DNA from: an uncultured Gammaproteobacteria bacterium
GTDB lineage: Bacteria; Patescibacteriota; Patescibacteriia; Magasanikbacterales; UBA922
DNA: 64,000 nucleotides
Reading direction: 5' to 3'
NCBI GenBank assembly: GCA_964612105.1
Contig: CAZTEU010000005.1
Span: forward strand, 45,039 to 109,038
Made by a program: the position numbers and the translations under genes. Numbering within the stretch: the first letter of the stretch is position 1; each line of letters opens with the position of its first letter. Below, one piece after another: positions 5,487 through 52,060 of the stretch. The notes below the pieces were generated by a model. That model did no database searches, was not told the DNA's origin, and was given only the letters and a program-made list of their open reading frames with translations.

Positions 5487-6497
5487 TTAAAACTGTTTCA
5501 AAAATCTTAAATCCCCACTCCTTAAGTGGCGTATGTCTTCAATATGATACTTAAGCATCACAAGACGATCAAAACCAATACCAAAGGCAAGTCCCTGATA
5601 CTCTGCTGGATCTAAACCAGCCTCACGAATAACATTCGGATGCATAAGGCCACAGCCTAACATTTCCATCCATTTTTCATTTCCGTTAACATCTGTATAT
5701 TTTATATCCAATTCAAAACCAGGCTCAACAAACGGGAAATAACCTGGACGCAACCTTACATCCATCTCTTTCCCATAAAAACCAGAGATAAGTTCCTTCA
5801 TAACCCCTATTAAATGCCCTACTGTTATATTTTTATCAACTACAAATGCTTCAAACTGTTCAAAAGTATGTTCGTGTGTTGAATCCAGAGCCTCATTACG
5901 ATATACACGACCTGGATAAGCTATGCGCAAAGGTGCACCATATTTTTTTAGCAAACGTACCTGCATGTTAGAAACATGAGGGCGCATGCACATTTTTTCA
6001 TTTCCTTTTATATAAAACGTGTCTTGACTATCTCTTGCAGGGTGGTACGCAGGAATATTTAACGCTTCAAAACAATAATAATCACTATCCAGCTCTGGAC
6101 CATCTTCCACCATAAAACCCATTCTCTTAGCCACATCTTCCATATGCCACATTGCTTGTGTAATAGTATGTATATTCCCCTGTTCTCTTCTTGGTACTAA
6201 AGGTTGAGTTACATCAATCTTTTCTGCCTTTGCTACATCATCCCACTTTTTTCTTTTAAGCTCTTGTTTCTTTTCTTCAATGCCTCCAACCATAATTTGT
6301 TTTATCTCATTGGCTGTTTTACCAACTTCTTTTCTCATATCCTCAGATAAGTCTTTCATCTCTTTCATAACTAAACTCATCTTTCCTGTCTTACGAGCAA
6401 AAAAATCTTGTTCTAACTCTTCTAGAACATTAAGAGTGCCAACCTTCTTTAATTGCTTAACGAATGAATCCTGAAGTTTTTTAAGTTTATTTTCCAT
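5487..6497 (-). CDS. pheS: phenylalanine--tRNA ligase alpha subunit
   Basis: 336 aa; class II aaRS motifs (FRNE..., GxGxGFDRLVML). Confidence 0.95.
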   Translation of the reverse strand: MENKLKKLQDSFVKQLKKVGTLNVLEELEQDFFARKTGKMSLVMKEMKDLSEDMRKEVGKTANEIKQIMVGGIEEKKQELKRKKWDDVAKAEKIDVTQPLVPRREQGNIHTITQAMWHMEDVAKRMGFMVEDGPELDSDYYCFEALNIPAYHPARDSQDTFYIKGNEKMCMRPHVSNMQVRLLKKYGAPLRIAYPGRVYRNEALDSTHEHTFEQFEAFVVDKNITVGHLIGVMKELISGFYGKEMDVRLRPGYFPFVEPGFELDIKYTDVNGNEKWMEMLGCGLMHPNVIREAGLDPAEYQGLAFGIGFDRLVMLKYHIEDIRHLRSGDLRFLKQF

Positions 6498-6897
6498 CTT
6501 TTCTTCTAAAAGGAATTACACTGTCCCCACCTTCTGCCCTAACTTCCGCACGAACTTCTTGCTCCTCCTCATTGTACATTCTTAACAACTCGTCTTTAAG
6601 TGCGTTTAGATATTTTGCCTTTTCTTTCACTAAGTGTTCTTGGGCAAGTATACCAAGATTTGCTTCATCAGAGCTGTCCAAATAATGCGTATAATGTTCT
6701 GCAAACCTGCGAAAAGCCTGTTCCACTTTCTCCTGGAATGAAAGTTCCGCTGTCTCTTTTTCCACACTTACATCATAAAAATCCGTTAGCAACCTCTCTG
6801 TCCAATTATCTGTGTCTTTCTGTATATAAGCCCCAAGTCTATCCACTTTGGATAACAGATTCTCAAACCTTCTCATTTGTACGGACACGACTGCCAT
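6487..6897 (-). CDS. hypothetical protein (136 aa), overlaps pheS start by 11 nt
   Basis: ORF track; acidic helical protein, no recognised domain. Confidence 0.45.
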   Translation of the reverse strand: MAVVSVQMRRFENLLSKVDRLGAYIQKDTDNWTERLLTDFYDVSVEKETAELSFQEKVEQAFRRFAEHYTHYLDSSDEANLGILAQEHLVKEKAKYLNALKDELLRMYNEEEQEVRAEVRAEGGDSVIPFRRKDGK

Positions 6898-6901
6898 ATT
6901 A

Positions 6902-8080
6902 TCAAATTAACTTTACAACATCTCTCCAAGTAACAACTATAATTAAAATCATAAGCAACACAAAACCTATCATATGTGCTGTCTGCTCATATTTCATTGG
7001 TACAGGTTTTTTTGTAATCTTCTCTATTATAACAAATAATAGGCGCCCACCGTCAAGTGCAGGGATTGGTAAAATATTTAATGCGGCCAAAGATAATGAA
7101 ATTACAGCACTAATGTGGATTAAATAGCTTATTCCCAACTTAGCACTTGCACCAATAACATTAGCTATACCAACAGGACCAGCAACCTCAAACAACAATC
7201 CTTGGCCTACAATAAGATTTTTAATTAACAAGAAAAATCCAATAAATATATTCACTAGCATTATGCCTGCTCCCATAAATCCTTTTACAATAGCTAGATG
7301 CCATGGGTAACGAACTATACCTGCGTTTCCAAGAATCACGCCAAGCTTTGGAACACTCTCTCCTTTTATCATAGCTGGGGCTATGGAATAGCTAATCTTT
7401 TCCTTTCCTCTTAATATTTCTAGTTCTATAGTATCAGAAGACGCTTCTGTATGCTCGTTAATATAACCAACCATTTCTGCCATGTCTTTAATCACCATTC
7501 CATTTATAGCAAGCACCTTATCTCCATATTGTATTCCAGCCTTATCTGCTGGAGTATCCACTTGCACCTGCTGTATCATTACAAAAGGACCCTCAACAAT
7601 AACTGCACTGTCATCAACACCACCACTAATATCTGTAGGTAAACCAATCATTAATCCTCCTGCTAGAAGCAACGCAGCAAGAATAAAATTCATTGTAACA
7701 CCAGCAACCAAAACCAAGGCTCTTTTCCATAACGAATGATACATAAAAGAGTCTTTCTCATTCCTTGCCTCACCATTCTCCCCTTTTATTTTTACAAAAC
7801 CACCTAGTGGTAACCAGTTAAAAGAATAAAGAGTCGTTGGATATTCCTGCTCTCTTTTCTCTCCACCAGCTGTTTGTTTTAATGAACTCTTTCCATTTCC
7901 CCACACCCACCTCCATTTTCCTGTTTTTGGATTCTTATAAACCCCACCAAGTCTTGGAGGAAAACCAAGACCAAATTCATATACTTTCATTCCGCTTTTG
8001 CGTGCAACAATAAAATGCCCCCATTCGTGGGCAATAACAAGTACAGATAATACCGCTAAGAAAATTATTAGTGTTAGCAT
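6902..8080 (-). CDS. rseP: RIP metalloprotease RseP / site-2 protease (M50) with PDZ domain
   Basis: HEWGHF (HExxH) in first TM, PDZ-like middle, C-terminal TMs. Confidence 0.85.
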   Translation of the reverse strand: MLTLIIFLAVLSVLVIAHEWGHFIVARKSGMKVYEFGLGFPPRLGGVYKNPKTGKWRWVWGNGKSSLKQTAGGEKREQEYPTTLYSFNWLPLGGFVKIKGENGEARNEKDSFMYHSLWKRALVLVAGVTMNFILAALLLAGGLMIGLPTDISGGVDDSAVIVEGPFVMIQQVQVDTPADKAGIQYGDKVLAINGMVIKDMAEMVGYINEHTEASSDTIELEILRGKEKISYSIAPAMIKGESVPKLGVILGNAGIVRYPWHLAIVKGFMGAGIMLVNIFIGFFLLIKNLIVGQGLLFEVAGPVGIANVIGASAKLGISYLIHISAVISLSLAALNILPIPALDGGRLLFVIIEKITKKPVPMKYEQTAHMIGFVLLMILIIVVTWRDVVKLI

Positions 8081-8208: not shown

Positions 8209-8559
8209 ATGGATAAATACACAGTATGGCATAATCCCAGATGTGGAAATAGCCGAGGAACAATAGAACTGTTAAAAGAAAGAGGTATAGAGCCAGATAT
8301 AAAACTATATTTGGAGAACGTCCCAAGTGAAGATGAGCTAAAAAATGTTGCTAGACTTCTTAATAAAAAACCTATTGAGTTTACTAGAACAAAAGAGAAA
8401 GCGTTTAAAGAAGCAAATCTGAGAAAAGATAGTAGTGATGAAGAAATAATTAAGGCAATGAAAAAATATCCAATACTTATACAAAGACCAATTGTAATAA
8501 AAGACAATAAAACAGCAGTAATAAGTAGACCGCCAGAAACCGTGCTAGATTTCATATAA
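8209..8559 (+). CDS. ArsC/Spx-family protein (arsenate reductase-like, thioredoxin fold)
   Basis: MDKYTVWHNPRCGNSRGT... N-terminal Cys in ArsC/YffB-like context. Confidence 0.75.
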   Translation: MDKYTVWHNPRCGNSRGTIELLKERGIEPDIKLYLENVPSEDELKNVARLLNKKPIEFTRTKEKAFKEANLRKDSSDEEIIKAMKKYPILIQRPIVIKDNKTAVISRPPETVLDFI

Positions 8560-8560
8560 C

Positions 8561-8590
8561 AAAAAAAGCGCTATGCGCTTTTTTTAATAC
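8561..8590. terminator. rho-independent terminator (AAAAAAAGCGCTATGCGCTTTTTTT)
   Basis: Stem AAGCGC/GCGCTT with flanking A/T runs. Confidence 0.75.
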
Positions 8591-8679
8591 TAGACAAAAA
8601 GGTATGGGAGCGAACGAATCTTGTTTCTACGCCCCCTCAACCCCGCCCCAGATGGGACTAGTGTGGGACGGCGAGGCTA

Positions 8680-8916
8680 CTAACCCCTACTCGTGGTGTT
8701 GCTGTTCCAGACGAGGTCGAAGACCAGCGCCAGGAATAGGCTCATCGTGCAGATGCAGAACAGCACGATGCCGGTGTCGAACATCATGTGCTCGAAACCG
8801 TTCAGCCTGATACCATTGCAGCTGATGGCTGCACTTCGGTACATCGCGGATGCACCACCCACGATGAACAGAACTATGCAACCGATGAAGCAAGAACCAA
8901 ACAGCTTCCAGAACAT
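8680..8916 (-). CDS. small membrane protein (78 aa), island A gene 1
   Basis: Two hydrophobic helices; AAGGAGGGGAAA immediately upstream of ATG (rc of 8917-8932). Confidence 0.6.
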   Translation of the reverse strand: MFWKLFGSCFIGCIVLFIVGGASAMYRSAAISCNGIRLNGFEHMMFDTGIVLFCICTMSLFLALVFDLVWNSNTTSRG

Positions 8917-8990
8917 TTTCCCCTCCTTGAGGAATAGGTAACCTTACGGTCACCAGCGATAAGTACGTTCGCTCAACCTTTCTATCTAGT

Positions 8991-9040
8991 ATAGATTGTA
9001 AAGAGTTTTTGTTTTACCAAACAAAGAAGTGACGGGAGTG
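8991..9040 (+). repeat. intergenic repeat copy 1 (TTGTAAAGAGTTTTTGTTTT ... AAGAAGTGACGGGAGTGAA)
   Basis: Near-identical 20-mer plus related purine-rich 19-mer also at 9576-9628; third inverted partial copy at 9955-9975. Confidence 0.7.
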
Positions 9041-9084
9041 AATTGGATTCAGACTCGCCACCTCGCAGGCTCCTTCTCCTGCGA

Positions 9085-9498
9085 TCAGCGACGGCCCGTG
9101 TGTTGCTCGTCTGCGATCGTCGCCACCCCGGCGAACAGGATAGCGACACTGATGAGCCCAAGGATGGCCCACACCGTCGCCTCTGGATTCAGCACCATCT
9201 GGGCGCTGAATATTCCGCCGTACATGACGGCGGTGAAAACCATCCCAGCGAAGCTCGCCAACCAGACGAACATCCCCGTAACCAGGATTACCATCCCATC
9301 CCAGCGGGAGAAGGTCGACAGGTTGCAGATGCAACCCAAACCAGCCGCCACGAAGATGAAGGCGCCGATCAACAGCGCCAATGTCGCGAACTCGAGGAGG
9401 AACGGCAGGGTGAACACCCAGCCGAACACCTTCATGGCCACGCCCATGATGGTCGCGACTAGAGCCAAACTGACCGTCGGGATATCAAAGAAACGCAT
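9085..9498 (-). CDS. polytopic small membrane protein (137 aa), island A gene 2
   Basis: Four hydrophobic segments; CAAGGAGGAGAAAATG upstream. Confidence 0.6.
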   Translation of the reverse strand: MRFFDIPTVSLALVATIMGVAMKVFGWVFTLPFLLEFATLALLIGAFIFVAAGLGCICNLSTFSRWDGMVILVTGMFVWLASFAGMVFTAVMYGGIFSAQMVLNPEATVWAILGLISVAILFAGVATIADEQHTGRR

Positions 9499-9575
9499 TT
9501 TCTCCTCCTTGCTCGTCTACTGACGAGCTGTAGGCGTTTCGTCCAAAATTCACTCCACTTCTTTATTTGGTATAA

Positions 9576-9628
9576 GTTGTAAAGAGTTTTTGTTTTTCTA
9601 CTAAACAAGAAAGCGAGGAGGTGAACAT
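9576..9628 (+). repeat. intergenic repeat copy 2 (TTGTAAAGAGTTTTTGTTTTT ... AGAAAGCGAGGAGGTGAA)
   Basis: See copy 1. Confidence 0.7.
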
Positions 9629-9683
9629 AGTACGTTACAACCCCTCGCTGGAAACTGCTCCACAGGAAAAGGGTTGAAAGATC

Positions 9684-9920
9684 TCACTCGACGTCGTTGC
9701 ACACCGAGCGCACGGGCTCCTCATCGCTGTACCAGCCGAGGGGGGCTGCATAAACGACGAGGCCACCGATGCTCCCGAGGGAGGCCAGGGACAGACCCAG
9801 AATGGCCGTCTCCACCCGCCCCGCATCAGGGACGAGGAACAGGCCGGTGGCGAAGAGCCCCAGACCCACGAGGAGGAGGATGAAGAAACAGTGGGAATCA
9901 CGATCACGGCGACTACGCAT
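9684..9920 (-). CDS. small membrane protein (78 aa), island A gene 3
   Basis: Two hydrophobic helices; GGAG 8 nt upstream of ATG; TG-extended -10 promoter at 10027-10040. Confidence 0.5.
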   Translation of the reverse strand: MRSRRDRDSHCFFILLLVGLGLFATGLFLVPDAGRVETAILGLSLASLGSIGGLVVYAAPLGWYSDEEPVRSVCNDVE

Positions 9921-9954
9921 GGCAAACTCCAGCCTAGGTTACTTGAACGACGAT

Positions 9955-9975
9955 GTGTCGGACTTGTTCACCTCG
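9955..9975 (-). repeat. inverted partial repeat copy 3 (rc: AAGAAAGCGAGGTGAACA)
   Basis: Reverse complement matches purine-rich half of copy 2; lies about 40 nt upstream of island A gene 3. Confidence 0.6.
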
Positions 9976-10026
9976 CTTTCTTACTTAGTATATTTTAAGG
10001 TACTACTATCCTATTTTACCAACACA

Positions 10027-10040
10027 GTATTATAGCACAA
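10027..10040 (-). promoter_or_regulatory. TG-extended -10 promoter (TTGTGCTATAAT) pointing into island A
   Basis: Identical 13-mer to 2700-2713 and 38317-38330. Confidence 0.5.
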
Positions 10041-10042
10041 AA

Positions 10043-10070
10043 AACCCCTTTTGTCAAGGGGTTTTTATGG
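10043..10070. terminator. bidirectional terminator AAAAACCCCTTTTGTCAAGGGGTTTTT
   Basis: 10-bp perfect stem, loop TTGTC; related hairpin at 21637-21665. Confidence 0.8.
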
Positions 10071-10102
10071 TTTTTTGGCTTATTTTAGCTAAATTGTATA
10101 CT

Positions 10103-11485
10103 TTACTGTTTCTCAATAATACCCCTTATCTCCCCTATCCTACCACTCAAATCCTCTTTCTTCCATGTTTCCAGATTTAGGCGTAAAACAGGCTCAGTAT
10201 TACTCTTTCTTACATTAAACCATCCCCAGTTAAATTCCATCCATACACCATCTATATTATTACTAGAAATAGCCTCATTTTTGTATATTTCTCTTATTTT
10301 TTCCATCATTCCATCTTTATCCTCCACCTCAAAATTAATCTCTCCTGAGTGATAATATTTCTTTAATGGAGTTATAATCTCACTAAGAGATTTGCCTGCC
10401 TGCGAAATAAGCCTAAGTATGTACAAAAGTGATAGTTCTGTACATTCAATCTTGTACATTTCATCAAAATATAGGTGCAGAGAAAGCTCGGAGCCAAACA
10501 CTCCATTTTCCTCACTCATTATTTTTTTAATGTAAGTATGCCCAACCTGTGTCATTATAGTTTTTGCTCCTGCAGACTCATATGACTCTTTAACAATCCT
10601 ACTGGAACGAAGATCATACAGCATTGTTGCACCTGGATTATTTTTTAGCACTTCCAAACCAATAATTGTAGCAACAAAAGATGCATCCACCACTTCCCCC
10701 TTCTCATTAACAACACCTATCCTATCCGCATCTCCATCCAAAGCAAAACCAAAATCTGCACCAACCTCTATAACCTTTGCTTGTAAGTCTTTTAATGTTT
10801 CTGTCTTTAATGGATTAGCCTCATGGTTTGGAAAAGTGCCGTCCGGCTCTATATACATGTACTCAACATTCACTTGAGATAATTTTTCCAATAATCTTGG
10901 AAATGTTACTCCTCCCATTCCATTTGCAGAATCTATAACTATTTTTAATGGTTTAATATCTTCCGGCTTTACCAATTCTAGAATTCTCTCCTGGTACAGC
11001 GGAAACATATCTTTCTCTTCCACATTTCCTTTTTCTTCTTTTACTTCACCAAAATCATTTTTTATTACAGCATCACGAATCTCTTCCATACCGTTTACTT
11101 TACCAACAGCTAATCCATTCCCAAGAGCTAATTTAAAACCATTATATTCTGCCGGATTATGACTAGCTGTAACAATTACCCCCCCAGCATGCTCTTCTAA
11201 ATGAGCGCAGGAGAAATTAAAAAGTGGAGTTGTACTTTGTCCTATGTTTACAACATCCACACCCTCATCTGTAATACCTTTTATTACAGCTTCACTAAAA
11301 GGTTTACTGGTTGGTCTCATGTCCAACCCAACTACCATTTTTTTTGCAGAAAAATCCTCACCTTTATTTTTTAGGAAGTTTACATATGCACGCCCAAGTC
11401 TGTACGCCAAATCCTCACTAAGCTCACTATCTGCAAGCCCGCGAATATCGTATGACTTAAAGACATGTTCTGGAATATCTACCAT
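10103..11485 (-). CDS. phosphoglucomutase/phosphomannomutase family protein (alpha-D-phosphohexomutase)
   Basis: VTASHNPAEYNGFK active-site Ser motif, Mg-binding DGDADR; start probably at MVDIPEHVFKSYDIRG (ORF track start 11542 is upstream). Confidence 0.85.
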   Translation of the reverse strand: MVDIPEHVFKSYDIRGLADSELSEDLAYRLGRAYVNFLKNKGEDFSAKKMVVGLDMRPTSKPFSEAVIKGITDEGVDVVNIGQSTTPLFNFSCAHLEEHAGGVIVTASHNPAEYNGFKLALGNGLAVGKVNGMEEIRDAVIKNDFGEVKEEKGNVEEKDMFPLYQERILELVKPEDIKPLKIVIDSANGMGGVTFPRLLEKLSQVNVEYMYIEPDGTFPNHEANPLKTETLKDLQAKVIEVGADFGFALDGDADRIGVVNEKGEVVDASFVATIIGLEVLKNNPGATMLYDLRSSRIVKESYESAGAKTIMTQVGHTYIKKIMSEENGVFGSELSLHLYFDEMYKIECTELSLLYILRLISQAGKSLSEIITPLKKYYHSGEINFEVEDKDGMMEKIREIYKNEAISSNNIDGVWMEFNWGWFNVRKSNTEPVLRLNLETWKKEDLSGRIGEIRGIIEKQ

Positions 11486-11590
11486 ATAATTTTGTTGAAA
11501 AATAAGCGGATTTAGTATATAGTACGAGTATCTCATACGCAAGTTTCAGAGAGTTTTTATGTACAAAATCTATAAATAAGATATAGGATT

Positions 11591-14134
11591 ATGGACCCAA
11601 AACAACTTCTAGATCATTTCTCCTCTCACCTAAAAAATGTAATAGCAAAAGCAATTTCTGTATCTGCAAGCTTTTCTCATTCAGAAGTAATGCCTGCACA
11701 TTTACTTCTCGCACTAGTACAAGAAAAAGGATCTATTGCTTCTCAGTTACTGGAAAAGTCAGAAGTTTCTTCCAAGACTATTCTTTCTTACCTAAAATCT
11801 ATAACAAAACAACTTCCTGCAATGGACATAGCAACACGAGCGGCAATAGCCACTCTTCCAGAACTCAGTAAATCTTCTAAAAGAGTTTTGGAAAAAGCAA
11901 TGCTTACTGGTTATGAAAATGAACATACCCATGTTGGTACAGAACACTTGCTGTACGGATTATTACAAAGTAGAGATGTTGGAATAAAAGAGATACTATC
12001 CAAAACAAAAATTAAGAGAAAAGAGATGACACAGCAGTTGGAAATTATTTTTACAAGTACAAACAAATTTCCAGATGTGCAGGATATAGCAGAAGCAATG
12101 GGACATATAGAAGAATTGGCAGAAGGAGGTGGTGCGCTTGCAATTACTCCTGAAAAATCAAAAACTCAAAAGAAATCTAGAACACAAAAATACCAAGCAT
12201 TGTCTATGTTTGCTGTAGAATTGACAGATGTAGATGTGCAAAAAACAATTGATCCTGTAATTGGTCGTGAAAACGAAATAGAAAGACTAATCCATGTGCT
12301 TTCTCGCAGGAATAAAAATAACCCTATACTTGTTGGAGAGCCCGGGGTTGGTAAAACAGCAATTGTAGAGGGGCTTGCAAAAAGGGTTTCGGAAGGAAAG
12401 GTGCCGGCTGTATTACAGAACAAAAAAATATTTGCATTGGACTTAACATTACTTGTTGCAGGTACAATATATCGTGGGGAATTTGAGGCTCGTATTAAAC
12501 AGCTTGTAGATGAGGTGTCCAGTAGAAGTGATTTTATTCTTTTTATAGATGAAATCCACAATATAATAGGAACAGGTTCCAATCAAGGAACAATGGATGC
12601 AGCAAACATATTAAAGCCTGCACTTGCGCGTGGAAAACTTAGGTGTATTGGAGCTACAACTCATGATGAGTATAAGAAGTACGTTACAGCAGATCCTGCT
12701 CTGGAAAGACGTTTCCAGGCTGTTAATGTAGAAGAGCCTTCTCGCGAAGAGGCAATAGAAATATTAAAAGGTGTAAAAAAATATTACGATGAATTTCATG
12801 GTGCTTCTATCAGCGATTCAGCAATTACTACAGCAGTAGACTTATCCATGAGATATATTCATGATAATTACTTGCCAGATAAGGCAATTGACTTAATAGA
12901 CGAAGCATCTGCTTCTGTACGCACAAAGAAAAAACCAACTCCCCTACAAAAAAAGAGGTTGGGCATTATAAAAGAGTTAAACAGTATAAGAAAAGACAAA
13001 GATACAGCTATGGCAAGTGAAGACTTAGATTCAGCGACTGTTTTAAAGAAACGACTAGATGATTTAGAAGAAAAAATAGAATCTCTAGAAAAACAGACAA
13101 AGAAAACAAAGAAGGTGGCGAGATCACGTGTTACTAAGAGTGATGTAATAGAAGTACTAGCAAACAGATTGGGGCTAAATAAGAAACTATTGGAAGAAAA
13201 CCAATGGTCCAAATTACAAACTCTTTCGGATAGGCTTTCAAATCATATTGTAGGGCAGGACACTGTACTCAACAAACTAGAGAGAGTATTAAAACAAGCT
13301 CATCTAGGTATAAGAGATAAAAACAAACCGTTGTCGTCTTTGCTTTTTGTTGGTCCTAGTGGTGTAGGAAAAACAGAACTCGCAAAATCTTTGGCGAAGG
13401 AGCTATATCACGATGAAAAATCTCTTATTAGGTTGGACATGAGTGAGTTTGCAGAAGGGCATGGTGTATCTAAACTACTTGGCTCCCCTGCTGGATATGT
13501 GGGATACAAAGACAGAAACCACTTTATCGATAAGCTAAAACAAAGACCTTACTCAGTCGTATTGTTCGATGAGTTTGACAAAGCCCATCCGGATGTTATG
13601 AAATTATTATTACAGATTTTAGATGAAGGCACTTTGACAGATAGTAATGGTAAAAAAGTCCACTTCTGCCACTCAACTGTTATCCTTACAAGCAATGTTG
13701 GGGCGGAACTATATAAGAAGAGTGGTTTTGGTTTTGGTTCTTCCAAGCAAAAAAGTGTGGAAGGTACAAAAAAACGAGATGAAGCAATAAGCTCAAAATT
13801 AAGAGATGTGTTTGGAACTCCCCTTCTAGGAAGACTTCATGAGGTGTGTATCTTTTCTCCTTTGACTAATGAAAATATAATGGAAATAATTTCTAGACAC
13901 GCAATAAAAATTAGCTCAGACCTAAAAACACAGCAGGATATCGCCCTTACTCTTACAAAGACTGCTATTAAACAGCTTGCGATAGACTCTAAACATGATG
14001 ATCTTGGAGCAAGGAATGTTGAACGTATAGTAGATCATGTTATACAGGATTTAGTTGTAGGTGAATTACAAAAAGAAAGTAAGAAGAAACAATATAGACT
14101 ATCCCATAAACAATCTGCATACTATTTACAATAA
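11591..14134 (+). CDS. clpC: Clp/Hsp100 AAA+ chaperone, ClpC-like ATP-binding subunit
   Basis: Clp_N repeats, two Walker A motifs GEPGVGKTA and GPSGVGKTELAK, 847 aa. Confidence 0.9.
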   Translation: MDPKQLLDHFSSHLKNVIAKAISVSASFSHSEVMPAHLLLALVQEKGSIASQLLEKSEVSSKTILSYLKSITKQLPAMDIATRAAIATLPELSKSSKRVLEKAMLTGYENEHTHVGTEHLLYGLLQSRDVGIKEILSKTKIKRKEMTQQLEIIFTSTNKFPDVQDIAEAMGHIEELAEGGGALAITPEKSKTQKKSRTQKYQALSMFAVELTDVDVQKTIDPVIGRENEIERLIHVLSRRNKNNPILVGEPGVGKTAIVEGLAKRVSEGKVPAVLQNKKIFALDLTLLVAGTIYRGEFEARIKQLVDEVSSRSDFILFIDEIHNIIGTGSNQGTMDAANILKPALARGKLRCIGATTHDEYKKYVTADPALERRFQAVNVEEPSREEAIEILKGVKKYYDEFHGASISDSAITTAVDLSMRYIHDNYLPDKAIDLIDEASASVRTKKKPTPLQKKRLGIIKELNSIRKDKDTAMASEDLDSATVLKKRLDDLEEKIESLEKQTKKTKKVARSRVTKSDVIEVLANRLGLNKKLLEENQWSKLQTLSDRLSNHIVGQDTVLNKLERVLKQAHLGIRDKNKPLSSLLFVGPSGVGKTELAKSLAKELYHDEKSLIRLDMSEFAEGHGVSKLLGSPAGYVGYKDRNHFIDKLKQRPYSVVLFDEFDKAHPDVMKLLLQILDEGTLTDSNGKKVHFCHSTVILTSNVGAELYKKSGFGFGSSKQKSVEGTKKRDEAISSKLRDVFGTPLLGRLHEVCIFSPLTNENIMEIISRHAIKISSDLKTQQDIALTLTKTAIKQLAIDSKHDDLGARNVERIVDHVIQDLVVGELQKESKKKQYRLSHKQSAYYLQ

Positions 14135-19889: not shown

Positions 19890-21224
19890 ATGACAAAAGA
19901 AACAATAATCTTCGTGTGCTCTAACTGCGACGCTCAATTCCAGAAATGGACTGGACAATGCTTCGAATGTGGTAAATGGGGTACAGTAGAAAACAAGACA
20001 GCAATCACAGATAACAAATCTGGAGACAGTAAAGTTATTGGTGTAGGTGTAAACACACAAAAGCTAGGTGAAATAAAAAATGTAGATTCTTTTAGGAACT
20101 CCTCAAAAATTGGAGAACTAGATCGTGTTCTTGGTGGTGGAATAGTACCAGGTAGTTTAATACTTCTTGGAGGAGAGCCTGGTATTGGAAAATCCACTCT
20201 TTCTTTGCAAATTGCAAACAATATGAAAAAGTCACTATACATTTCTGGAGAAGAATCAATAAATCAGATTAAGATGAGAGCAGACAGACTTGGTAATGCA
20301 AATGCAGATATGTTAGTTATGCATGAGAATGATATAGAAAATATATGCGCAACAATAAAAAAAGAGTCTCCGGAGATTGTAATAATAGACTCAATACAAA
20401 CAATGATATCCAATGACACAAGTGGAGAGCCTGGAAATGTAAATCAGGTGCGTGTGTGTGCAACAAAGCTTTTGGATTCTGCTAAGCAAAGTAAGAGTGC
20501 TATAGTTATTATTGGTCATGTTACAAAAGATGGTTCTGTTGCTGGACCAAAGACTCTGGAACATCTAGTAGATACTGTTTTGTACATTGAGGGAGATAGG
20601 TACTACCAAACAAGACTTTTGAGAACAATAAAAAATAGGTTTGGCTCTACAGATGAAGTAGGTGTCTTTGAAATGAACGAACTCGGTCTTAAGGAAGTAA
20701 AAAACCCATCATCTGCTTTCTTAGAAGAGCGTGCAGATGATACGCCTGGCAGTGTTGTTACTTGTCTTATAGAAGGCACTCGCCCACTACTAATTGAGGT
20801 GCAGGCATTAGTAAATAAAACTAGTTTTGGATATCCTGTACGCAAAGCAAGCGGTTTCGATCTAAATAGATTACATGTACTTGTAGCTGTACTACAAAAA
20901 AGAGCAGGACTGCAGTTAGGTCAGTATGATATCCATGTAAATGTAGTTGGAGGATTAAAAGCACAAGAGCCGGCTGCAGACTTAGCAGTATGTCTTGCTA
21001 TAGCAAGCTCTTTTAAGGACAAGGTACTTGGTGGAGATTTGGTAGTTTTTGGAGAAGTTGGATTAGGTGGAGAAGTAAGAAGAGTAAATCAGTCTCAAAA
21101 AAGAATAAAAGAGTGTGAGAAACTTGGTATGCAACGAGTAGTAACTTCCAAAAACCCAGGTAATGTTCATGGAACAAAGATTATAGAAGTAAAGAATATA
21201 GCAGAACTAATCCAGAAAACATAA
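19890..21224 (+). CDS. radA: DNA repair protein RadA (Sms)
   Basis: N-terminal C4 zinc finger (CSNCDAQFQKWTGQCFECGKWG), RecA-like Walker A GEPGIGKST, KNRFG motif, Lon-like C-terminus. Confidence 0.95.
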   Translation: MTKETIIFVCSNCDAQFQKWTGQCFECGKWGTVENKTAITDNKSGDSKVIGVGVNTQKLGEIKNVDSFRNSSKIGELDRVLGGGIVPGSLILLGGEPGIGKSTLSLQIANNMKKSLYISGEESINQIKMRADRLGNANADMLVMHENDIENICATIKKESPEIVIIDSIQTMISNDTSGEPGNVNQVRVCATKLLDSAKQSKSAIVIIGHVTKDGSVAGPKTLEHLVDTVLYIEGDRYYQTRLLRTIKNRFGSTDEVGVFEMNELGLKEVKNPSSAFLEERADDTPGSVVTCLIEGTRPLLIEVQALVNKTSFGYPVRKASGFDLNRLHVLVAVLQKRAGLQLGQYDIHVNVVGGLKAQEPAADLAVCLAIASSFKDKVLGGDLVVFGEVGLGGEVRRVNQSQKRIKECEKLGMQRVVTSKNPGNVHGTKIIEVKNIAELIQKT

Positions 21225-21244
21225 AACCACCTTGTGGGTGGAAT

Positions 21245-21610
21245 ATTGACCGCCGACCCGCCCGAACCACTCAGAAGCAAGCTTCTTTGTGATCCGGACA
21301 GGTCAGACGTGTGAGACTGGTTGAGAACTACACCATACCAACGTGGGCATTGGAGATTCCGATGGAACCCCTGATGATCTGGCCAGACGCTGTGAGGTTG
21401 TAGTTGGAACAGGCACGAACATACCCGCGGTAATTCTCACGGTCATCTTCCGTGCGATTACCGCTCAGAATCCACCTCGCGTAGTCCTGAGGGATTCTGT
21501 GCTCAACACGGAGCCTGGCAACAATCTGTCGCCCCTGTGAAAATTCGCTCTGATGGACACTCATGCTCTCTTTCCTCCTGTTTAGGGGTATTTACCCCTA
21601 AGAAATTGAA
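21245..21610. other. GC-rich micro-island B
   Basis: 60-nt sample 21251-21310 counts 36/60 G+C versus 20/60 in adjacent recG 3' end; flanked by hairpins CCACCTTGTGGGTGG and AGGGGTATTTACCCCT. Confidence 0.7.
21328..21564 (-). CDS. hypothetical 78-aa protein, island B
   Basis: CAGGAGGAAAGAGAGCATG upstream; no recognised domain. Confidence 0.5.
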   Translation of the reverse strand: MSVHQSEFSQGRQIVARLRVEHRIPQDYARWILSGNRTEDDRENYRGYVRACSNYNLTASGQIIRGSIGISNAHVGMV

Positions 21611-21636: not shown

Positions 21637-21665
21637 TCCCTTTTGTCAAGGGATACTTTTTATTC
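21637..21665. terminator. terminator hairpin ATCCCTTTTGTCAAGGGAT + T-run
   Basis: Shares CCCTTTTGTCAAGGG core with 10043-10070. Confidence 0.7.
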
Positions 21666-23726: not shown

Positions 23727-23794
23727 ACTGAGTTATTGTACGGGATTTTTGTAATAAAAACAAAAAAACACCATTTTGGGTGTTTCTGGTCCGC

Positions 23795-24100
23795 TGGCTC
23801 GACCACTACTCCGTAGAGTGTGGCCAAGCCAGAGGACATGTTCTACCTCTCCTTCTGTGAACGTACAAACCGTCGTCGTGCTTTCGCAACGATTTCGGAA
23901 ATACGCATGAGTTCCTTGAGTCGACTGAGATCAACCCTGTTCGCTTGCCTTTTCGGTGTTTCAACCTTACCCAGGTATGAAACACCTGGACGATCAAAAC
24001 GAGTCTCTCCGTATGGTCCCCCCATGACTGGCCTCCTGATTGTGCTTCGTTTCTATGGGTTTTTATATCACTGTAGGACATGTCTGTCAATTTAAAAACA
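23795..24100. other. GC-rich micro-island C
   Basis: G+C-rich segment between two AAAAACACC...GGTGTTTT hairpins. Confidence 0.65.
23843..24025 (-). CDS. hypothetical highly basic 60-aa protein, island C
   Basis: AGGAGG 6 nt upstream of ATG; overlapping antisense ORFs lack RBS. Confidence 0.45.
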   Translation of the reverse strand: MGGPYGETRFDRPGVSYLGKVETPKRQANRVDLSRLKELMRISEIVAKARRRFVRSQKER

Positions 24101-24130
24101 AAAAAACACCCTTACAGGTGTTTTATTTTG

Positions 24131-28282: not shown

Positions 28283-29161
28283 ATGACAATATCAAAGGAG
28301 GGGCTCGTTGCTTTTTATAGCAAAATAACTTATGGGCGATACTGTCAGATACAAAAAAACTTCTCCTCTTTTGAGGAGTTTTGGGGTGCTAGTCCTGACG
28401 AATTATTCTTGCGTCTTAGGTGGAAAGAAGATTTGATTTCTCACTTCTGCTCTTGGCGAAAAGATTTAGAGTACAATAAAATAGAAGAGTTAATGCAAGA
28501 ACAAGAAATGTATCTGGTTTTAATGGATGATAAGGACTATCCCCCACTACTAAAAGAGATACATAGCCCACCTATTGCACTTTTTGTTCGTGGAACATTG
28601 GAAAACATAAGAAAACCATTAGCTGTTGTTGGTACAAGGAAATGTTCTACGTACGGAAAACAGATTACAAGGACACTTGTGAGTGAACTAGCAAAAGAAG
28701 GAATCAGTATTATTAGCGGTCTAGCATATGGGATAGACGCAAGTGCTCATTATGCAACCCTACAAGCAAGTGGTAATACAATTGCTGTTCTGGGATCTGG
28801 ATGTGATGAAAACACAATAACCCCAGCCCCACATAGAAAACTAGCACAACAGATAGTAGAATCTGGAGGGGCTGTTATATCTGAGTACCCACCAGGTACT
28901 CATCCTACTAAATATTCTTTTCCAGAGAGAAACAGAATTATATCTGGAATTAGTATAGGGACACTTGTTATTGAGGCTCCTGAAAAATCTGGAGCATTAA
29001 TTACTTCTGATTTTGCACTTAACCAAAACCGAGAGGTCTTTGCTGTACCTCATAATATAACAAATATAAACGGGGCTGGTACAAATGAATTAATTAAAAA
29101 AGGTTCTCACGTTGTAACAAACTCAAGAGATATATTACATGTTTTTGAATCTAATCCATGA
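28283..29161 (+). CDS. dprA: DNA processing protein DprA (Smf)
   Basis: Rossmann-like LAVVGTRKCSTYG...SGLAYGIDASAH. Confidence 0.9.
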   Translation: MTISKEGLVAFYSKITYGRYCQIQKNFSSFEEFWGASPDELFLRLRWKEDLISHFCSWRKDLEYNKIEELMQEQEMYLVLMDDKDYPPLLKEIHSPPIALFVRGTLENIRKPLAVVGTRKCSTYGKQITRTLVSELAKEGISIISGLAYGIDASAHYATLQASGNTIAVLGSGCDENTITPAPHRKLAQQIVESGGAVISEYPPGTHPTKYSFPERNRIISGISIGTLVIEAPEKSGALITSDFALNQNREVFAVPHNITNINGAGTNELIKKGSHVVTNSRDILHVFESNP

Positions 29162-33600: not shown

Positions 33601-33869
33601 GGCGTTTGTGTAGCGGAGAGGAGGTAACCTCAATGCCTGTGGTAATATAAAGGCCCTCAACCCGCTACAAAATACAGGATATCAGAAAAAAGGAGAAAAT
33701 ACAAGAAAAAGAAAAGTCCCGAATAATTTCGGGATTTTTCTCGGCCTTGGGATTACCCTACCTCTATATTACCTACGGACAATTATAGCAATAAAATATA
33801 GATTTGTCAAGTAGGAGTGTAAATAAATCGGAAAAATAAAAAATCATCCTTTTTTAGGATGAATCGTTT

Positions 33870-35060
33870 CACCCTGCCCAGCGTTTCTTGCTGAGCAGGG
33901 TGTGCCTCCTTTTTTGGTAAGGTCATGAGAGACCGAGTGTCCGAGGAACCAAGTTCCACTACCCGAGAGCCAAGGAACCTAGCATCCTAGGGCTGACGCT
34001 TGCTACGGACGAGAAAACGAGAGCGGTCACCCCAGCCGCCGTCAAACCAGCGGAGATAAGTTAAGAGGTGCTGACCGTTGCCGTCGCTCCAGACACACGG
34101 GCAGCCCCGGTCACCGTTCAGGTCCTGCCAGACGCTTCCGAGCGCGACCAGTGGCCATTCCAGACCGACTTCTTGATGTTCGGCGCAGTATACGAGCAAA
34201 TCGCGCAACGAGGCGACCTCGTAGCCTTGTTTCTTGATCTCATCCAGCACTGCTGTGGTGTGCAAACGCTTGTTGAAATGCAAAACCTCGAGACTGTACT
34301 CGTAGTCAGGCTGGTCATCCGGAAGGGGGAAATTCTCGGTAGTGATGTTATATTCGACGTAACCGAACCCACATGCCCCAATGAGCTGTTGTAATTCATC
34401 CGGAGAGGTCTCTTCATCAGAAACGGTCTTCTTACGACGGACCAGGAAACGGTAGTAGTTGATCCACCTGCTCTCAAGCCAGTCGAAATCCAGACGCCGA
34501 CCGTTTCTATCACGCCAGACAAACGGACAACACTGGCCACCGTGCACATTCTGCCAAGTACTCCCGAGTGCGGACAATGGCCAGTCCAGGCCGACTTTGG
34601 AATGTTCGGCGCAGTATACGAGCAAATCGCGCAACGAGGCGACCTCGTAGCCCTGCTTCTTGATCTCATCCAGCACTTCCGTGGTGGTCAGACCCTTGTT
34701 GAGGTGCAGAACCTCGAGACTGTACTCGTAGTCAGGCTGGTCATCCTCGAGCGGGAATTTCTCGCCCATGATGTTATCATCCACTGAGTGGAACTTGCAT
34801 GCTCCAATGAGCTGTTGCAGTTCGTCCGAGATAGGCACTTCGACCAGCTTGTCGAACCGCCCTTCCACAATCGCTTGGAGCGCTTTTTTGACCAGAGCTG
34901 GGTCGTACGGGCACCCCCTCTTCTGCCGAAGCAACCTCTTGATCTCGTGGAGCTGACCATCAATCTCGAAATACAGATCGCCTGCAACGCTAAACGCCAT
35001 GACAATCTCCTCTTTTCTAAGCTACAAATGCCAACGCACTCGCGCCAACACTCTTGCCTG
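33870..35060. other. GC-rich micro-island D
   Basis: Sharp compositional shift; single long minus-strand ORF with RBS, multiple overlapping antisense ORFs typical of high-GC DNA. Confidence 0.7.
33987..35000 (-). CDS. hypothetical 337-aa protein built from two tandem ~150-aa repeats (unrecognised domain), island D
   Basis: AAGAGGAGA upstream of ATG; internal repeat SDELQQLIGAC.F...DDQPDYEYSLEVLH.NK..TT.VLDEIKKQGYEVASLRDLLVYCAEH..VGL.WPL.ALGS.WQ....G..CP.VW.D.NG present twice. Confidence 0.6.
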   Translation of the reverse strand: MAFSVAGDLYFEIDGQLHEIKRLLRQKRGCPYDPALVKKALQAIVEGRFDKLVEVPISDELQQLIGACKFHSVDDNIMGEKFPLEDDQPDYEYSLEVLHLNKGLTTTEVLDEIKKQGYEVASLRDLLVYCAEHSKVGLDWPLSALGSTWQNVHGGQCCPFVWRDRNGRRLDFDWLESRWINYYRFLVRRKKTVSDEETSPDELQQLIGACGFGYVEYNITTENFPLPDDQPDYEYSLEVLHFNKRLHTTAVLDEIKKQGYEVASLRDLLVYCAEHQEVGLEWPLVALGSVWQDLNGDRGCPCVWSDGNGQHLLTYLRWFDGGWGDRSRFLVRSKRQP

Positions 35061-37530: not shown

Positions 37531-38307
37531 TTAATATATTGATGTAGTGTGAATATCTAAAACTTCTCTTGCAAGACGCTCGTATGCTTTTGCCCCCCTG
37601 CTTCTAGGGTCATAATGAAAAATACTTTGTCCAAAGCTTGGGGCTTCTGCAAGTCTTACAGTCCTTGGGATTACAGAACGAAATATTGTATTTGGAAAAA
37701 ACCTATACAACTCCCCCATTACATCATCTGCTAACTTTGTGCGCTTATCAAACATTGTTATCACTGCTCCAAGTACAGATAATTCCGGTTTTAGGTGAGT
37801 TTGTACGAGCTGTATTGTCTGTAATAACTGCCCTAGTCCTTCCAAAGCATAATATTCCGCCTGTACAGGAATGAGTAGCTCATCTGCTGCCACAAGCGCA
37901 TTCACAGTCAACAATCCAAGTGATGGAGGGCAATCGATAATAATATAATCATACGCATGACGTACCTCTTCCAATATGTCTGATAACTGGTGCTCTCGTC
38001 TCTCCATTCCAACTAATTCTATATTTGCTCCAGCTAGATGATGGTTACATGGGATAATTCTTAAACCTTCGTGTGCTGTATTGTGTACTACATCATGTAT
38101 TCTTTTCTGTCGTGCCATTGCTTCATAGAGACTGTTGTCTAGCTCATTTCTTTGTATCCCATATCCACTAGATGCATTACCTTGAGGATCCATATCTACC
38201 AATAAGACAAAACGGCCACTCTCAGCAAGTGCGGCAGCCAGATTCATTGAAGTTGTCGTTTTCCCCACTCCACCTTTTTGGTTCACTACGGCGATAATTT
38301 TGCTCAT
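37531..38307 (-). CDS. parA: chromosome partitioning ATPase ParA/Soj
   Basis: Deviant Walker A KGGVGKTTTSMNLAAALAE. Confidence 0.9.
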   Translation of the reverse strand: MSKIIAVVNQKGGVGKTTTSMNLAAALAESGRFVLLVDMDPQGNASSGYGIQRNELDNSLYEAMARQKRIHDVVHNTAHEGLRIIPCNHHLAGANIELVGMERREHQLSDILEEVRHAYDYIIIDCPPSLGLLTVNALVAADELLIPVQAEYYALEGLGQLLQTIQLVQTHLKPELSVLGAVITMFDKRTKLADDVMGELYRFFPNTIFRSVIPRTVRLAEAPSFGQSIFHYDPRSRGAKAYERLAREVLDIHTTSIY

Positions 38308-43231: not shown

Positions 43232-43436
43232 ATTTTTGGCTTAGTTGAGCTAAATTTCTATTGTAATTATATCATAATTCTGCTTGTAATATCAAGGAAT
43301 AGTCAAGTTGACAGGCATACTTTTTTGTGCAACAATGAAAAAACCAGCGTCGTTATGGCGGGGTCATCCCAATGCGGGATTAGGGTGTCTTCTTCTTCCA
43401 CACCAACAAAGGAAGATTTTTCAAGGAGGTGTCGTT

Positions 43437-43799
43437 ATGGCATCTAGACAGTATGAGTTTTTGGACAAGACCGGAGAGACTTGGTACCACATCGTAGAAG
43501 GTATGTGTCCCGGCATTTGGGACCTGATTATCAACTCACTTGTGCGCGGTAACCAGTGCACTGTGATAATCTACACCCAAAGCCAAGCCTCTGGACAAAG
43601 ACTGGGCATCGAGCTGACACACCTGAAGAGTGTCACCAACCTCACGTCGTACGTCGACAAAGAGTGCGAAGAGTGGGCACTCGTTGCAACAACCCCGTGG
43701 AACTGGGTAACCGTGCGGTTCAACACCAAGACGCGACATGGACGCCTCCGGTTCCTGACGAAAGAGGAAGAGAGGGTGTGCACCACGCTCATGGAGTAG
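43437..43799 (+). CDS. hypothetical 120-aa protein, island E (start at MASRQYEF after AAGGAGG)
   Basis: CAAGGAGGTGTCGTTATG; ORF track's longer 43308 start lacks RBS. Confidence 0.5.
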   Translation: MASRQYEFLDKTGETWYHIVEGMCPGIWDLIINSLVRGNQCTVIIYTQSQASGQRLGIELTHLKSVTNLTSYVDKECEEWALVATTPWNWVTVRFNTKTRHGRLRFLTKEEERVCTTLME

Positions 43800-43821
43800 A
43801 GGTAACCCCACACAGACGACA

Positions 43822-43862
43822 AGACCCCCGTTCCTGCAAGGTTCGGGGGTCAATTCTTTTTT
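43822..43862. terminator. terminator GACCCCCGTTCCTGCAAGGTTCGGGGGTC + TTTTTT
   Basis: 8-bp GC stem. Confidence 0.75.
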
Positions 43863-51489: not shown

Positions 51490-52060
51490 TAGCAAAACAA
51501 AAAAACACCATATTAGTGTTCTTTTGAATTGGGCCGAGATTTTGTATAGGTACTCGGCCGTTTAACCTATGTTGTCGTACTCCCCTTACTCGGTAGGCAT
51601 CTCGACATCGCTGACGTCGACACCTAGAGCCAAGGCGCATACTTGGTAGTCCGCGACGCGATTCTGGTAGATCGACCCTCCAACGCATCGCACGAAGCGC
51701 GTAACGAAGTCCTTGAACCCGTGGTCCAGGTCCATGGCAGTACAGATGATGTGAGATGCCGCATACCTGAAGTCTTCGTCGACCATACCATACATGAAGT
51801 TCTGCAGGGCACTCTCGCAGAGTCCACCACACAGTGAGTCAGCCAGAGGGATGTCCTTCCAGGCGATGTAGGTACGGTTATTGTAGCCACGTTCCTCGTG
51901 AAAGAGTGTTTCATATGAGACCCCCTTCTCTTGAATCGCCGCTTTATTGAGGAGCCAAACCTTCAGACACTTGCTGACCTGGGCTTGCAGATACTGATTC
52001 ATTTCCATCTCCTTGTAAAGAGCCTCTATTTTGTCCTCCACCACGCCTTTTTGTGATTTC
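51490..52060. other. GC-rich micro-island F
   Basis: Compositional shift bounded by hairpins (AACACCATATTAGTGTT, GGCCGAG...CTCGGCC). Confidence 0.65.
51586..52002 (-). CDS. hypothetical 138-aa Cys-containing protein, island F (start at MNQYLQ after AAGGAG)
   Basis: CAAGGAGATGGAAATG; ORF track GTG start further upstream lacks RBS. Confidence 0.5.
   Translation of the reverse strand: MNQYLQAQVSKCLKVWLLNKAAIQEKGVSYETLFHEERGYNNRTYIAWKDIPLADSLCGGLCESALQNFMYGMVDEDFRYAASHIICTAMDLDHGFKDFVTRFVRCVGGSIYQNRVADYQVCALALGVDVSDVEMPTE

Follow-up and report, generated by a model that had tools for sequence, protein, structure and literature searches.

A candidate operon of foreign small membrane-protein genes, each enclosed by a covarying inverted repeat, in a genome of candidate phyla radiation type

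Integrons (IntI, attI, Pc and attC) hold promoterless, co-oriented cassettes, mostly of unknown function, which carry their own ribosome-binding sites and are read from a single promoter at the head of the array. Their cassette boundaries are imperfect palindromes with bulged bases, in which structure is conserved, and cassette content differs between related genomes. The locus analysed here, termed island A, is like an integron in all these respects. It is a 1.4-kb block of GC 0.54 between arsC (8209-8559, plus strand) and pgm (10103-11542, minus strand) in a 64-kb stretch of contig CAZTEU010000005.1 (the window, meaning the whole 64,000 nucleotides analysed), and it comprises three units (U1 to U3), each of which consists of a small open reading frame (ORF; A1, A2 and A3, respectively) enclosed by its own imperfect inverted repeat of 26-30 bp. 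In contrast to integrons, no IntI was found in the window, the arms stand on both sides of the ORF instead of forming a compact 3' attC, and conserved R boxes are lacking; the array is moreover tiny, locus-specific and invariant in the sampled population.

Several other described systems are partly similar to island A. The rAID-1 clusters of Bacteroidales (bioRxiv 10.1101/471110) are acquired loci for interbacterial defence, with small genes and intergenic repeats 'reminiscent of integrons', which are expressed and protective; they are like island A in being co-directional arrays of small acquired genes with skewed GC and repeated intergenic sequences. However, rAID-1 clusters are defined by a XerD-like 5' recombinase and by many genes homologous to those for T6SS immunity, and neither such a recombinase in the window nor a cargo match to immunity genes was found here. 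The stems processed by RNase III in the flanks of 16S and 23S rRNA and in T7 early mRNA are also comparable, in that the flanks of a unit pair with one another, the helix being at least 20 bp long and interrupted by an asymmetric internal loop, and the units are separated by single-stranded linkers. Those stems enclose rRNAs or are local intergenic hairpins, whereas the predicted stems of island A enclose single protein cistrons with exchangeable cargo; no rnc gene was found in the window. Phage morons and genomic islets are, like island A, promoter-gene-terminator units of deviant GC set between conserved genes, but island A lies in a host rather than a prophage, its promoter is of host type and fused to a host terminator, and it holds several cassettes with paired arms. 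With hok/sok it has in common small hydrophobic products and long-distance 5'-3' pairing of the mRNA (here in silico), while its proteins are two to three times larger with several helices, the pairing does not extend over the Shine-Dalgarno (SD) site, and no antisense RNA gene was found by a consensus scan. Unlike mobile insertion cassettes or miniature inverted-repeat transposable elements, its arms vary between units, no direct repeats flank the units, and no other copies were found in the window, in 21 kb of a second contig of the same organism (L072) or in the locus of the nearest relative (on chromosome OZ246405.1; hereafter L006). Bacteria of the candidate phyla radiation (CPR), to which the host appears to belong, have tiny genomes and depend on other cells, and little is understood of the ways in which they acquire accessory genes and express them. 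Our literature searches found no cassette systems described in CPR bacteria and, as far as they show, no class has been described in which covarying stems enclose single cistrons with exchangeable cargo in a CPR genome.

The reading that we favour, with a probability of about 0.45, is that island A is an operon of promoterless cassettes in which the stems act as insulators for RNA processing and stability and mark slots for the exchange of cargo. The enclosing repeats, whose arms lie 352-524 nt apart, were analysed in an alignment of the three window units with the single unit of L006. All four units have the same architecture, namely a 17-bp outer helix, a bulge of 3-5 nt in the 3' arm opposite 0-1 nt in the 5' arm, and a 9-bp inner helix, with the bulge in the same columns throughout. 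Standard pairs are formed by 98.1% of the 103 cells, and 11 of the 26 aligned pairs are changed on both sides; none of 500 shuffles reached the observed values of pairing and of both-side change, and when the partner was slid by 1-3 columns, pairing fell to 40-47% and 0-1 pairs were compensated. Of the 26 aligned pairs of the arms, 15 differ from unit to unit, mostly through compensating changes. Duplexes of cognate arms gave z-scores of -4.4 to -6.5 against shuffles and were better than non-cognate ones, except for U1 with L006, whose arms are orthologous, and all three stems were present in both the minimum free energy and the centroid folds of the whole predicted transcript of 1468 nt. Paired cells other than Watson-Crick occur in four pair columns and are all G·U on the mRNA-sense strand (A·C on the other strand; p ~0.06), a strand bias which favours pairing in RNA or in that single DNA strand.

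Within its arms each cassette contains a GC-rich 5' untranslated region (UTR) of about 50 nt with an SD site (strong, except for the GGAG of A3), a small ORF, and a 3' UTR of 40-60 nt (about 90 nt in L006). The arms are situated 44-54 nt upstream of the start codons and leave the SD sites uncovered; strong local hairpins lie upstream of the SD in U1, U2 and L006, and the SD sites of U1 and L006 are themselves inside small hairpins. Successive units are joined by AT-rich junctions with an identical 20-nt core, AAAACAAAAACTCTTTACAA, which occurs twice in the window against 0.09 expected. Profiles of the arms, searched with nhmmer, found no further copies in the window, L072, L006 or L007 (a second related genome, described below), and the arms are thus a locus-specific structure rather than a dispersed repeat. 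Searches of IMG/VR with a junction 19-mer and an arm 16-mer gave chance matches only, and a metagenome scan with the junction 19-mer gave 49 single, unrelated matches; one contig with a match to the 19-mer (L031) was inspected and rejected.

Comparison with L006 was used to follow the locus in a related genome. Gene order is the same in both (pgm, cassette, arsC), and identity to the window is 73% for phosphoglucomutase (PGM), 72% for RseP and 60% for ArsC. A word-7 blastn alignment of the two sequences covered the end of pgm, the terminator-promoter hairpin, the 5' arm, the 3' arm, the terminator and arsC, the 5' arm aligning as TTACAATCTAT..TAGA.A.AAAGGTTGAGCGAACG at 32 of 36 positions, while nothing aligned between the arms. 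There, L006 carries an unrelated ORF of 108 aa with two helices and a GC content at third codon positions (GC3) of 0.78, against 0.20-0.25 in its host genes. Because the arms are conserved above the flanking coding DNA (about 71% identical) and nothing between them aligns, the arms can be regarded as conserved boundaries of a slot with exchangeable cargo. Two additional, diverged slots (U2 and U3) are inserted between the promoter and U1 in the window lineage. In a distant genome (L077), arsC and a pgm-like gene converge with nothing between them; other arsC homologues were rejected as samples of the locus, since they came from distant organisms, some with an alternative genetic code, or from contigs that were too short. 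Between arsC and rseP, L006 also has two small ORFs of 86 and 60 aa (8377-8837) and a 466-aa gene that are absent from the window; we take the 86-aa product to be a RelE/ParE-type toxin, and the 60-aa ORF its possible antitoxin. With these genes in L006 and the array in the window, the rseP-pgm interval is a hotspot of accessory genes in both genomes.

The first-pass annotation of this DNA had placed an extended -10 box of the host immediately upstream of the operon. The host-type box stands, but TTGTGCTATAAT, at 10029-10040, is in fact the -10 half of a full TTGACA-17-TATAAT promoter of the sigma-70 type, which matches the consensus at every position (Table 1). Perfect matches of this kind number four in the window against 0.08 expected; of the other three, two stand ahead of tRNA genes and one at the head of a candidate small RNA. 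As TGnTATAAT is frequent ahead of host start codons, about 10 nt before the ATG in several host genes, 'host-type promoter' is a fair label. The -35 hexamer lies inside the loop of the pgm terminator hairpin, so that the two form a terminator-promoter adaptor, laid out as a hairpin CCC-TTGACRAAA-GGG, followed by a T run and then by TG-n-TAnnnT. This hairpin is kept at the orthologous site of L006. Its core, CCTTGACRAAARGG, is found at 10046-10059 and 21638-21651 of the window (minus strand), at 9874-9887 of L072 and at 7423-7436 of L006, and in the sequence examined it stands only at the heads of GC-rich islands, namely island A, island B, the P0005 island of L072 and the L006 cassette.

A consensus scan found no minus-strand promoter-like site between the cistrons, and terminator-like matches between the promoter and the end of the array were weak only and lay inside the A2 coding sequence. 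The hairpin that closes the array is likely the terminator of both the operon and the convergent arsC. With one promoter upstream and no convincing promoter or terminator between the cistrons, a single tricistronic operon with one transcript of about 1.47 kb would be the simplest reading of the sequence, and the earlier suggestion that a foreign cassette has been wired into host transcription is thus supported in silico. A weak promoter-like site on the plus strand (9967-9994, TTCACC-16-TATATT, 9/12) lies inside the 5' arm of unit 3 and points to the pgm terminator hairpin; it could give a short RNA antisense to the operon leader, and the frequency of such sites is within chance expectation.

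Overlapping ORFs are present on both strands of the island, the DNA being GC-rich and stop-poor, and the first-pass annotation, which took the minus-strand frames as genes, had allowed that antisense ORFs might be the true ones or that helix prediction might fail. Codon-position composition, SD sites and helices all favour the minus frames. These have a coding-like composition (GC3 0.77-0.81; G at first positions, G1, 0.27-0.41; T at second positions, T2, 0.37-0.46), whereas the antisense ORFs have the GC3 signal in common with them but a G1 of 0.13-0.24, no SD and no helices, and only the minus frames start with an ATG preceded by an SD. Kyte-Doolittle windows gave two, four and two helix-length hydrophobic segments in A1, A2 and A3, and essentially none in the competing ORFs of either strand, while AlphaFold, given the single A2 sequence, modelled helices at residues 5-29, 32-58, 65-94 and 105-134 (mean pLDDT 69). 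From codon-position composition, ATG/SD starts and hydrophobic helices together, the minus frames are identified as the coding frames, and their products, with support in silico, as membrane proteins of two or four helices. The three co-oriented ORFs of 78, 137 and 78 aa, each with its own SD, are read directly in the sequence as first described, and so are the two- and four-helix hydrophobic products. The two 78-aa proteins, A1 and A3, are indeed unrelated, and the four cargo proteins (A1-A3 and the L006 ORF) have no significant similarity to one another. A3 is charged at both termini, basic at the N-terminus and acidic at the C-terminus.

Searches for relatives of the products were negative. 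A2 matched nothing but itself, both among 5.8 billion clustered proteins searched by word index and among 1.84 billion representatives searched in full with HMMER; therefore the donor cannot be named, nor could an actinobacterial source be shown. Pfam, PHROGs, PADLOC and NCBIfam gave no credible match to any island protein, IMG/VR gave chance matches only to A1, A2, A3 and the protein of island C (one apparent A1 match, a word match to a phage head protein, was rejected), and no island relatives were found by blastn and tblastn in GenBank phages or PLSDB plasmids. Rfam gave nothing relevant, either for the window at the gathering threshold or for the island at E-values up to 1.

That the cassette is foreign had been proposed on first inspection, and the codon composition upholds it, GC3 being 0.77-0.81 in the island A genes against 0.20-0.28 in host genes. 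The UTRs inside the arms have a GC of 0.47-0.63 and the junction linkers a host-like 0.26, and the foreign composition is thus sharply bounded by the arms. The ORFs were located correctly in the earlier description, while the boundaries of the island are here corrected to 8587-9990. Of about 40 host ORFs with 150 aa or more (for example those starting at 38307, 45739 and 24900), not one has an SD site of the 5-mer type, in contrast to nearly every gene of the GC-rich islands, A1 and A2 included, which has an SD of the AGGAGG type; A3 has GGAG only. Since these host genes have no SD and several carry TGnTATAAT shortly before their ATG, the host seems to rely on leaderless, SD-free initiation. 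By three measures (GC3, SD sites and the lack of detectable relatives) the sequence supports a foreign origin for island A, and SD-bearing islands in an SD-free genome may serve as a simple sequence marker for recent gene imports in such organisms. Taken together, the earlier observation of the locus is confirmed and its interpretation is supported in part, in that the operon, promoter, foreignness and membrane proteins hold while the holin or toxin assignment does not. The enclosing inverted repeats, the conserved junction, the different cargo within the same arms of a relative, and the absence of SD sites from host genes had not been described.

The locus is not an assembly artefact, since the array is found, collinear with that of the window, in one orientation and at 99.8-100% identity, in 13 contigs from several independent assemblies (JGI, ENA and Logan). 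Variation in the population amounts to only five single-nucleotide polymorphisms (two synonymous, two non-synonymous and one in a UTR). In one short metagenome contig (L109) the array region is joined, at window position 10190 within pgm, to an unrelated and very AT-rich sequence of 256 nt (positions 1-256 of the contig); this junction is probably an assembly chimera, a rearranged variant being possible.

Table 1. Positions of features of island A and of further GC-rich islets (window coordinates unless L072 is named)
Feature	Position	Strand	Remarks
Operon promoter	10057->10029	minus	TTGACA (10057-10052), 17-nt spacer, TGcTATAAT (-10 at 10034-10029); 12/12 consensus match plus TG
pgm terminator hairpin	10040-10066	both	11-bp stem and T run on plus strand; shorter stem and T run also called on minus strand
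Predicted 5' leader	9991-10021	minus	transcription start inferred from -10 position; starts GGTAAAA, like 3' arm ends
Unit 3 5' arm	9965-9990	minus	inverted repeat I3; mRNA sense TACTAAGTAAGAAAGCGAGGTGAACA
A3	9684-9920	minus	78 aa, ATG, two hydrophobic helices, GC3 0.77; SD GGAG at 9929-9932
Unit 3 3' arm	9599-9627	minus	three extra bases form bulge
Junction J1	9576-9598	minus	AT-rich single-stranded linker, GC 0.26, contains AAAACAAAAACTCTTTACAA
Unit 2 5' arm	9547-9575	minus	inverted repeats I1 and I4
A2	9085-9498	minus	137 aa, ATG, four helices, GC3 0.81; SD AAGGAGGAG at 9502-9510
Unit 2 3' arm	9012-9044	minus	four extra bases form bulge
Junction J2	8993-9011	minus	same core as J1
Unit 1 5' arm	8966-8992	minus	inverted repeat I6, ATACTAGATAGAAAGGTTGAGCGAACG; 89% identical to arm at orthologous site of L006
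A1	8680-8916	minus	78 aa, ATG, two hydrophobic helices, five cysteines, GC3 0.77; SD AAGGAGG at 8921-8927
Unit 1 3' arm	8587-8616	minus	4-nt internal loop; near-identical in L006
Closing hairpin	8561-8585		perfect 11-bp stem, A/T run flanks; inverted repeat I12; kept in L006; absent from terminator-scan list
Islet B	21240-21600		
Islet D	23790-24080		
Islet C	33880-35010		
Islet E	43340-43860	plus	
Islet F	51540-52010		
L072 islet	6284-7740		
L072 islet	9899-11059		
L072 islet	11892-12327		
L072 islet	20455-20826		

In the favoured reading, the one promoter would give a tricistronic RNA in which the arms pair and close each cistron into a domain of its own. The stems and the single-stranded, AU-rich linkers would then act as processing and stabilising signals, with cutting by an RNase III-like activity at the stems and/or at RNase E/Y/J sites in the linkers; the insulator proposal is made because the geometry of stem and linker is that of RNase III processing stems and of RNase E/Y/J entry sites. 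In this way each of the three cistrons would end up on an independent mRNA with protected ends, and its own SD would serve for translation in an otherwise SD-free and often leaderless host. The same arms would double as slot markers, the cargo inside them being exchanged between lineages and the slot having been duplicated twice in the lineage of the window, and the products would be constitutively made small inner-membrane proteins of the accessory genome. As for their function, the promoter matches the consensus perfectly, the SD sites are strong and no regulator or partner gene is visible, all of which argues against a lethal product such as a holin or toxin and would fit protective or envelope proteins that are made constitutively. 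A protective role, in immunity or exclusion and not in lysis or toxicity, is our best guess, one that is put forward with little confidence.

A number of points weigh against this reading. Co-transcription and cleavage at the stems and linkers are predictions from sequence, and the covariation rests on four units from two genomes; as the three window units are paralogues, the counts are not independent events. The G·U asymmetry, in four columns, yields only the p value given above, and upkeep of complementarity at the DNA level would yield the same covariation. Expression may also be less constitutive than supposed, since the SD sites of U1 and L006 fall inside small hairpins. Moreover, the exchange of cargo needs some mechanism at the DNA level, and none was identified; possible routes are homologous replacement by way of the conserved flanking DNA and capture in the middle of a long palindrome.

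Such a DNA mechanism is at the heart of an integron-like explanation, in which the array would be a cassette-capture platform for circular cassettes, with the hairpin formed by 3' arm, J and 5' arm as attachment site, crossover within J behind the common promoter, and the arms as attC-like folded single-strand sites. The promoterless, co-oriented cassettes with their own ribosome-binding sites behind one promoter, the imperfect palindromes conserved in structure (bulged bases included) rather than in sequence, the identical 20-nt core between units, the compositionally foreign cargo without detectable relatives, and the different cargo at the same site of L006 would all fit, and folded single-stranded DNA would tolerate the G·T wobble as well. 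However, no integrase, recombinase or transposase was found in the window (20 unassigned ORFs were compared with Pfam and the rest read as housekeeping), the arms enclose the ORFs instead of following them, and GTTRRRY/RYYYAAC boxes are confined to one arm type, the GTTGAGC of U1 and L006 being absent from U2 and U3. In addition, no more copies of arms or junction occur in the window, the 21 kb of the same organism or the metagenome and viral scans, the array is identical in all 13 population contigs, and, since U1 and L006 have the same arms and different cargo, exchange is placed inside the arms and not at J; this explanation is therefore doubtful. A version that joins capture and insulation, in which mRNA-like units (UTR, SD, ORF, UTR) were captured into the centre of conserved palindromes behind a terminator-embedded promoter, as a hairpin-defined cassette platform of CPR bacteria whose arms also insulate the cistrons in the transcript, is attractive but on balance unlikely; its donors would be GC-rich, SD-using neighbours or hosts and, if true, it would do the work of an integron with no integrase linked to it, and would let foreign genes that depend on an SD enter an SD-free, leaderless genome. 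The inverted repeats, which are 26-30 bp long and surround segments of about 400-560 bp on the downstream side of a fixed promoter, might also be sites of an invertase that flips the cassettes relative to that promoter and makes them phase-variable, but all 13 contigs have a single orientation, the window has no invertase, and an indel of 3-5 nt at a fixed place together with covariation would be unexpected for protein-bound crossover sites, which leaves this explanation with very little to recommend it.

The remaining alternatives concern the nature of the products. Small hydrophobic proteins, long-range pairing between the 5' and 3' flanks of each cistron, and, in U1 and L006, SD sites that are partly hidden by local hairpins are what would be expected of type I toxin-like modules, that is, membrane toxins whose mRNAs are held inert by a hok-like fold-back of 5' and 3' ends until processed. 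The products, however, have 78-137 aa and 2-4 helices, compared with at most about 60 aa and one helix in known type I toxins; the arms keep their distance from the starts and leave the SD uncovered; the consensus scan found no antisense promoter over any translation start, and the 9/12 site at 9967-9994 points away from A3. In any case a cell would hardly tolerate three unrelated toxins encoded in tandem under a perfect constitutive promoter, and we consider this explanation improbable. The earlier proposal of holin-like, toxin or transporter-accessory proteins found no support, since Pfam, PHROGs, PADLOC and NCBIfam gave no match and no lysis or phage genes lie nearby. For the holin in particular, that is, a phage-derived lysis or moron remnant, the size and the topology of two to four helices fit holin classes, as do the charged termini of A3, and a self-contained promoter-gene-terminator unit with deviant GC is moron-like; yet no PHROG or Pfam holin was matched, no endolysin, spanin or other phage gene was found in the neighbourhood, neither IMG/VR nor GenBank phages hold a relative, and the flanks are housekeeping genes syntenic in L006, all of which makes such a remnant highly improbable. 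It is least credible that the ORFs are not genes at all but a GC-rich structured RNA, chance ORFs of stop-poor DNA or an assembly chimera. Long ORFs in several frames of GC-rich DNA, and the lack of homologues to show conservation, could be so explained, but gene-like codon-position composition and helix-length hydrophobic segments are found only in those minus frames that have an ATG and SD, Rfam finds nothing, and the locus is identical in independent assemblies from several samples.

At island A and comparable sites, foreign genes would appear to arrive as complete translation units and to be plugged in behind the recurring adaptor of terminator and promoter. Should the arms prove to be RNA insulators, nature would have its own equivalent of the processing elements with which synthetic biologists furnish operons; should they instead be recombination sites, they would belong to a new cassette-capture system. 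The small membrane proteins themselves are candidate factors at the interface of symbiont and host or of cell and phage.

The assignment of the host to the CPR (Patescibacteria) was made from PGM, for which the closest genomes are L006, a 1.23-Mb chromosome from a metagenome-assembled genome (MAG; 73% identity), and L007, a Candidatus Magasanikbacteria MAG (60%). The L006 record, a chromosome of 37% GC, is titled 'uncultured Gammaproteobacteria bacterium'; its own gene content and its similarity to the Magasanikbacteria MAG suggest that this label is wrong. The window has a GC of 0.38 and its genes are housekeeping ones, including pheST, rseP, an arsC-family gene, pgm, clp, radA, recG, topA, relA, parAB, secY and genes for ribosomal proteins, of which pgm, arsC, rseP and clp are the neighbours of island A. 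A dprA gene at 28283-29161 shows that a mediator of recombination in transformation is present in the host.

Further GC-rich islets, at least five of them in the window and others in L072, lie between housekeeping genes (Table 1). They have a GC3 of 0.59-0.71 and consist of a TTGACA -35, a TATAAT-like -10, a strong SD, an ORF and a terminator; the ORFs have no detectable relatives, with the exception of one Pfam GCS2 gene on L072, and no enclosing inverted repeats were found around these other islands. The protein of island C (33987-35000, 337 aa) is made of two tandem copies of one domain, and a contig of the same species (L114, 1895-2482), whose flanking proteins are 100% identical, encodes a single-copy version of 195 aa, which on sequence comparison is a strain-level duplication or deletion. 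Island C also has a 49%-identical paralogue on L072 and a 38%-identical homologue in a contig of 57% GC (L076), where it stands beside type I restriction-modification and CBASS genes; relatives of at least some island genes are thus to be found in GC-rich organisms.

A candidate small RNA of about 75 nt, for which Rfam gave no match, lies between topA and island C (~33700-33810, minus strand). It would be made from a perfect TTGACA-17-TATAAT promoter (33810->33782); some 45 nt beyond this come a hairpin and T run (~33712-33745), and the interval holds no ORF. A 14-mer, AACAAAAAAACACC, which forms the start of a terminator hairpin, occurs at 23759-23772, 24097-24110 and 51496-51509, three times against 0.11 expected. 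Two of them flank island D as direct repeats and the third is at the border of island F, and these repeats may represent a duplicated terminator or an insertion scar.

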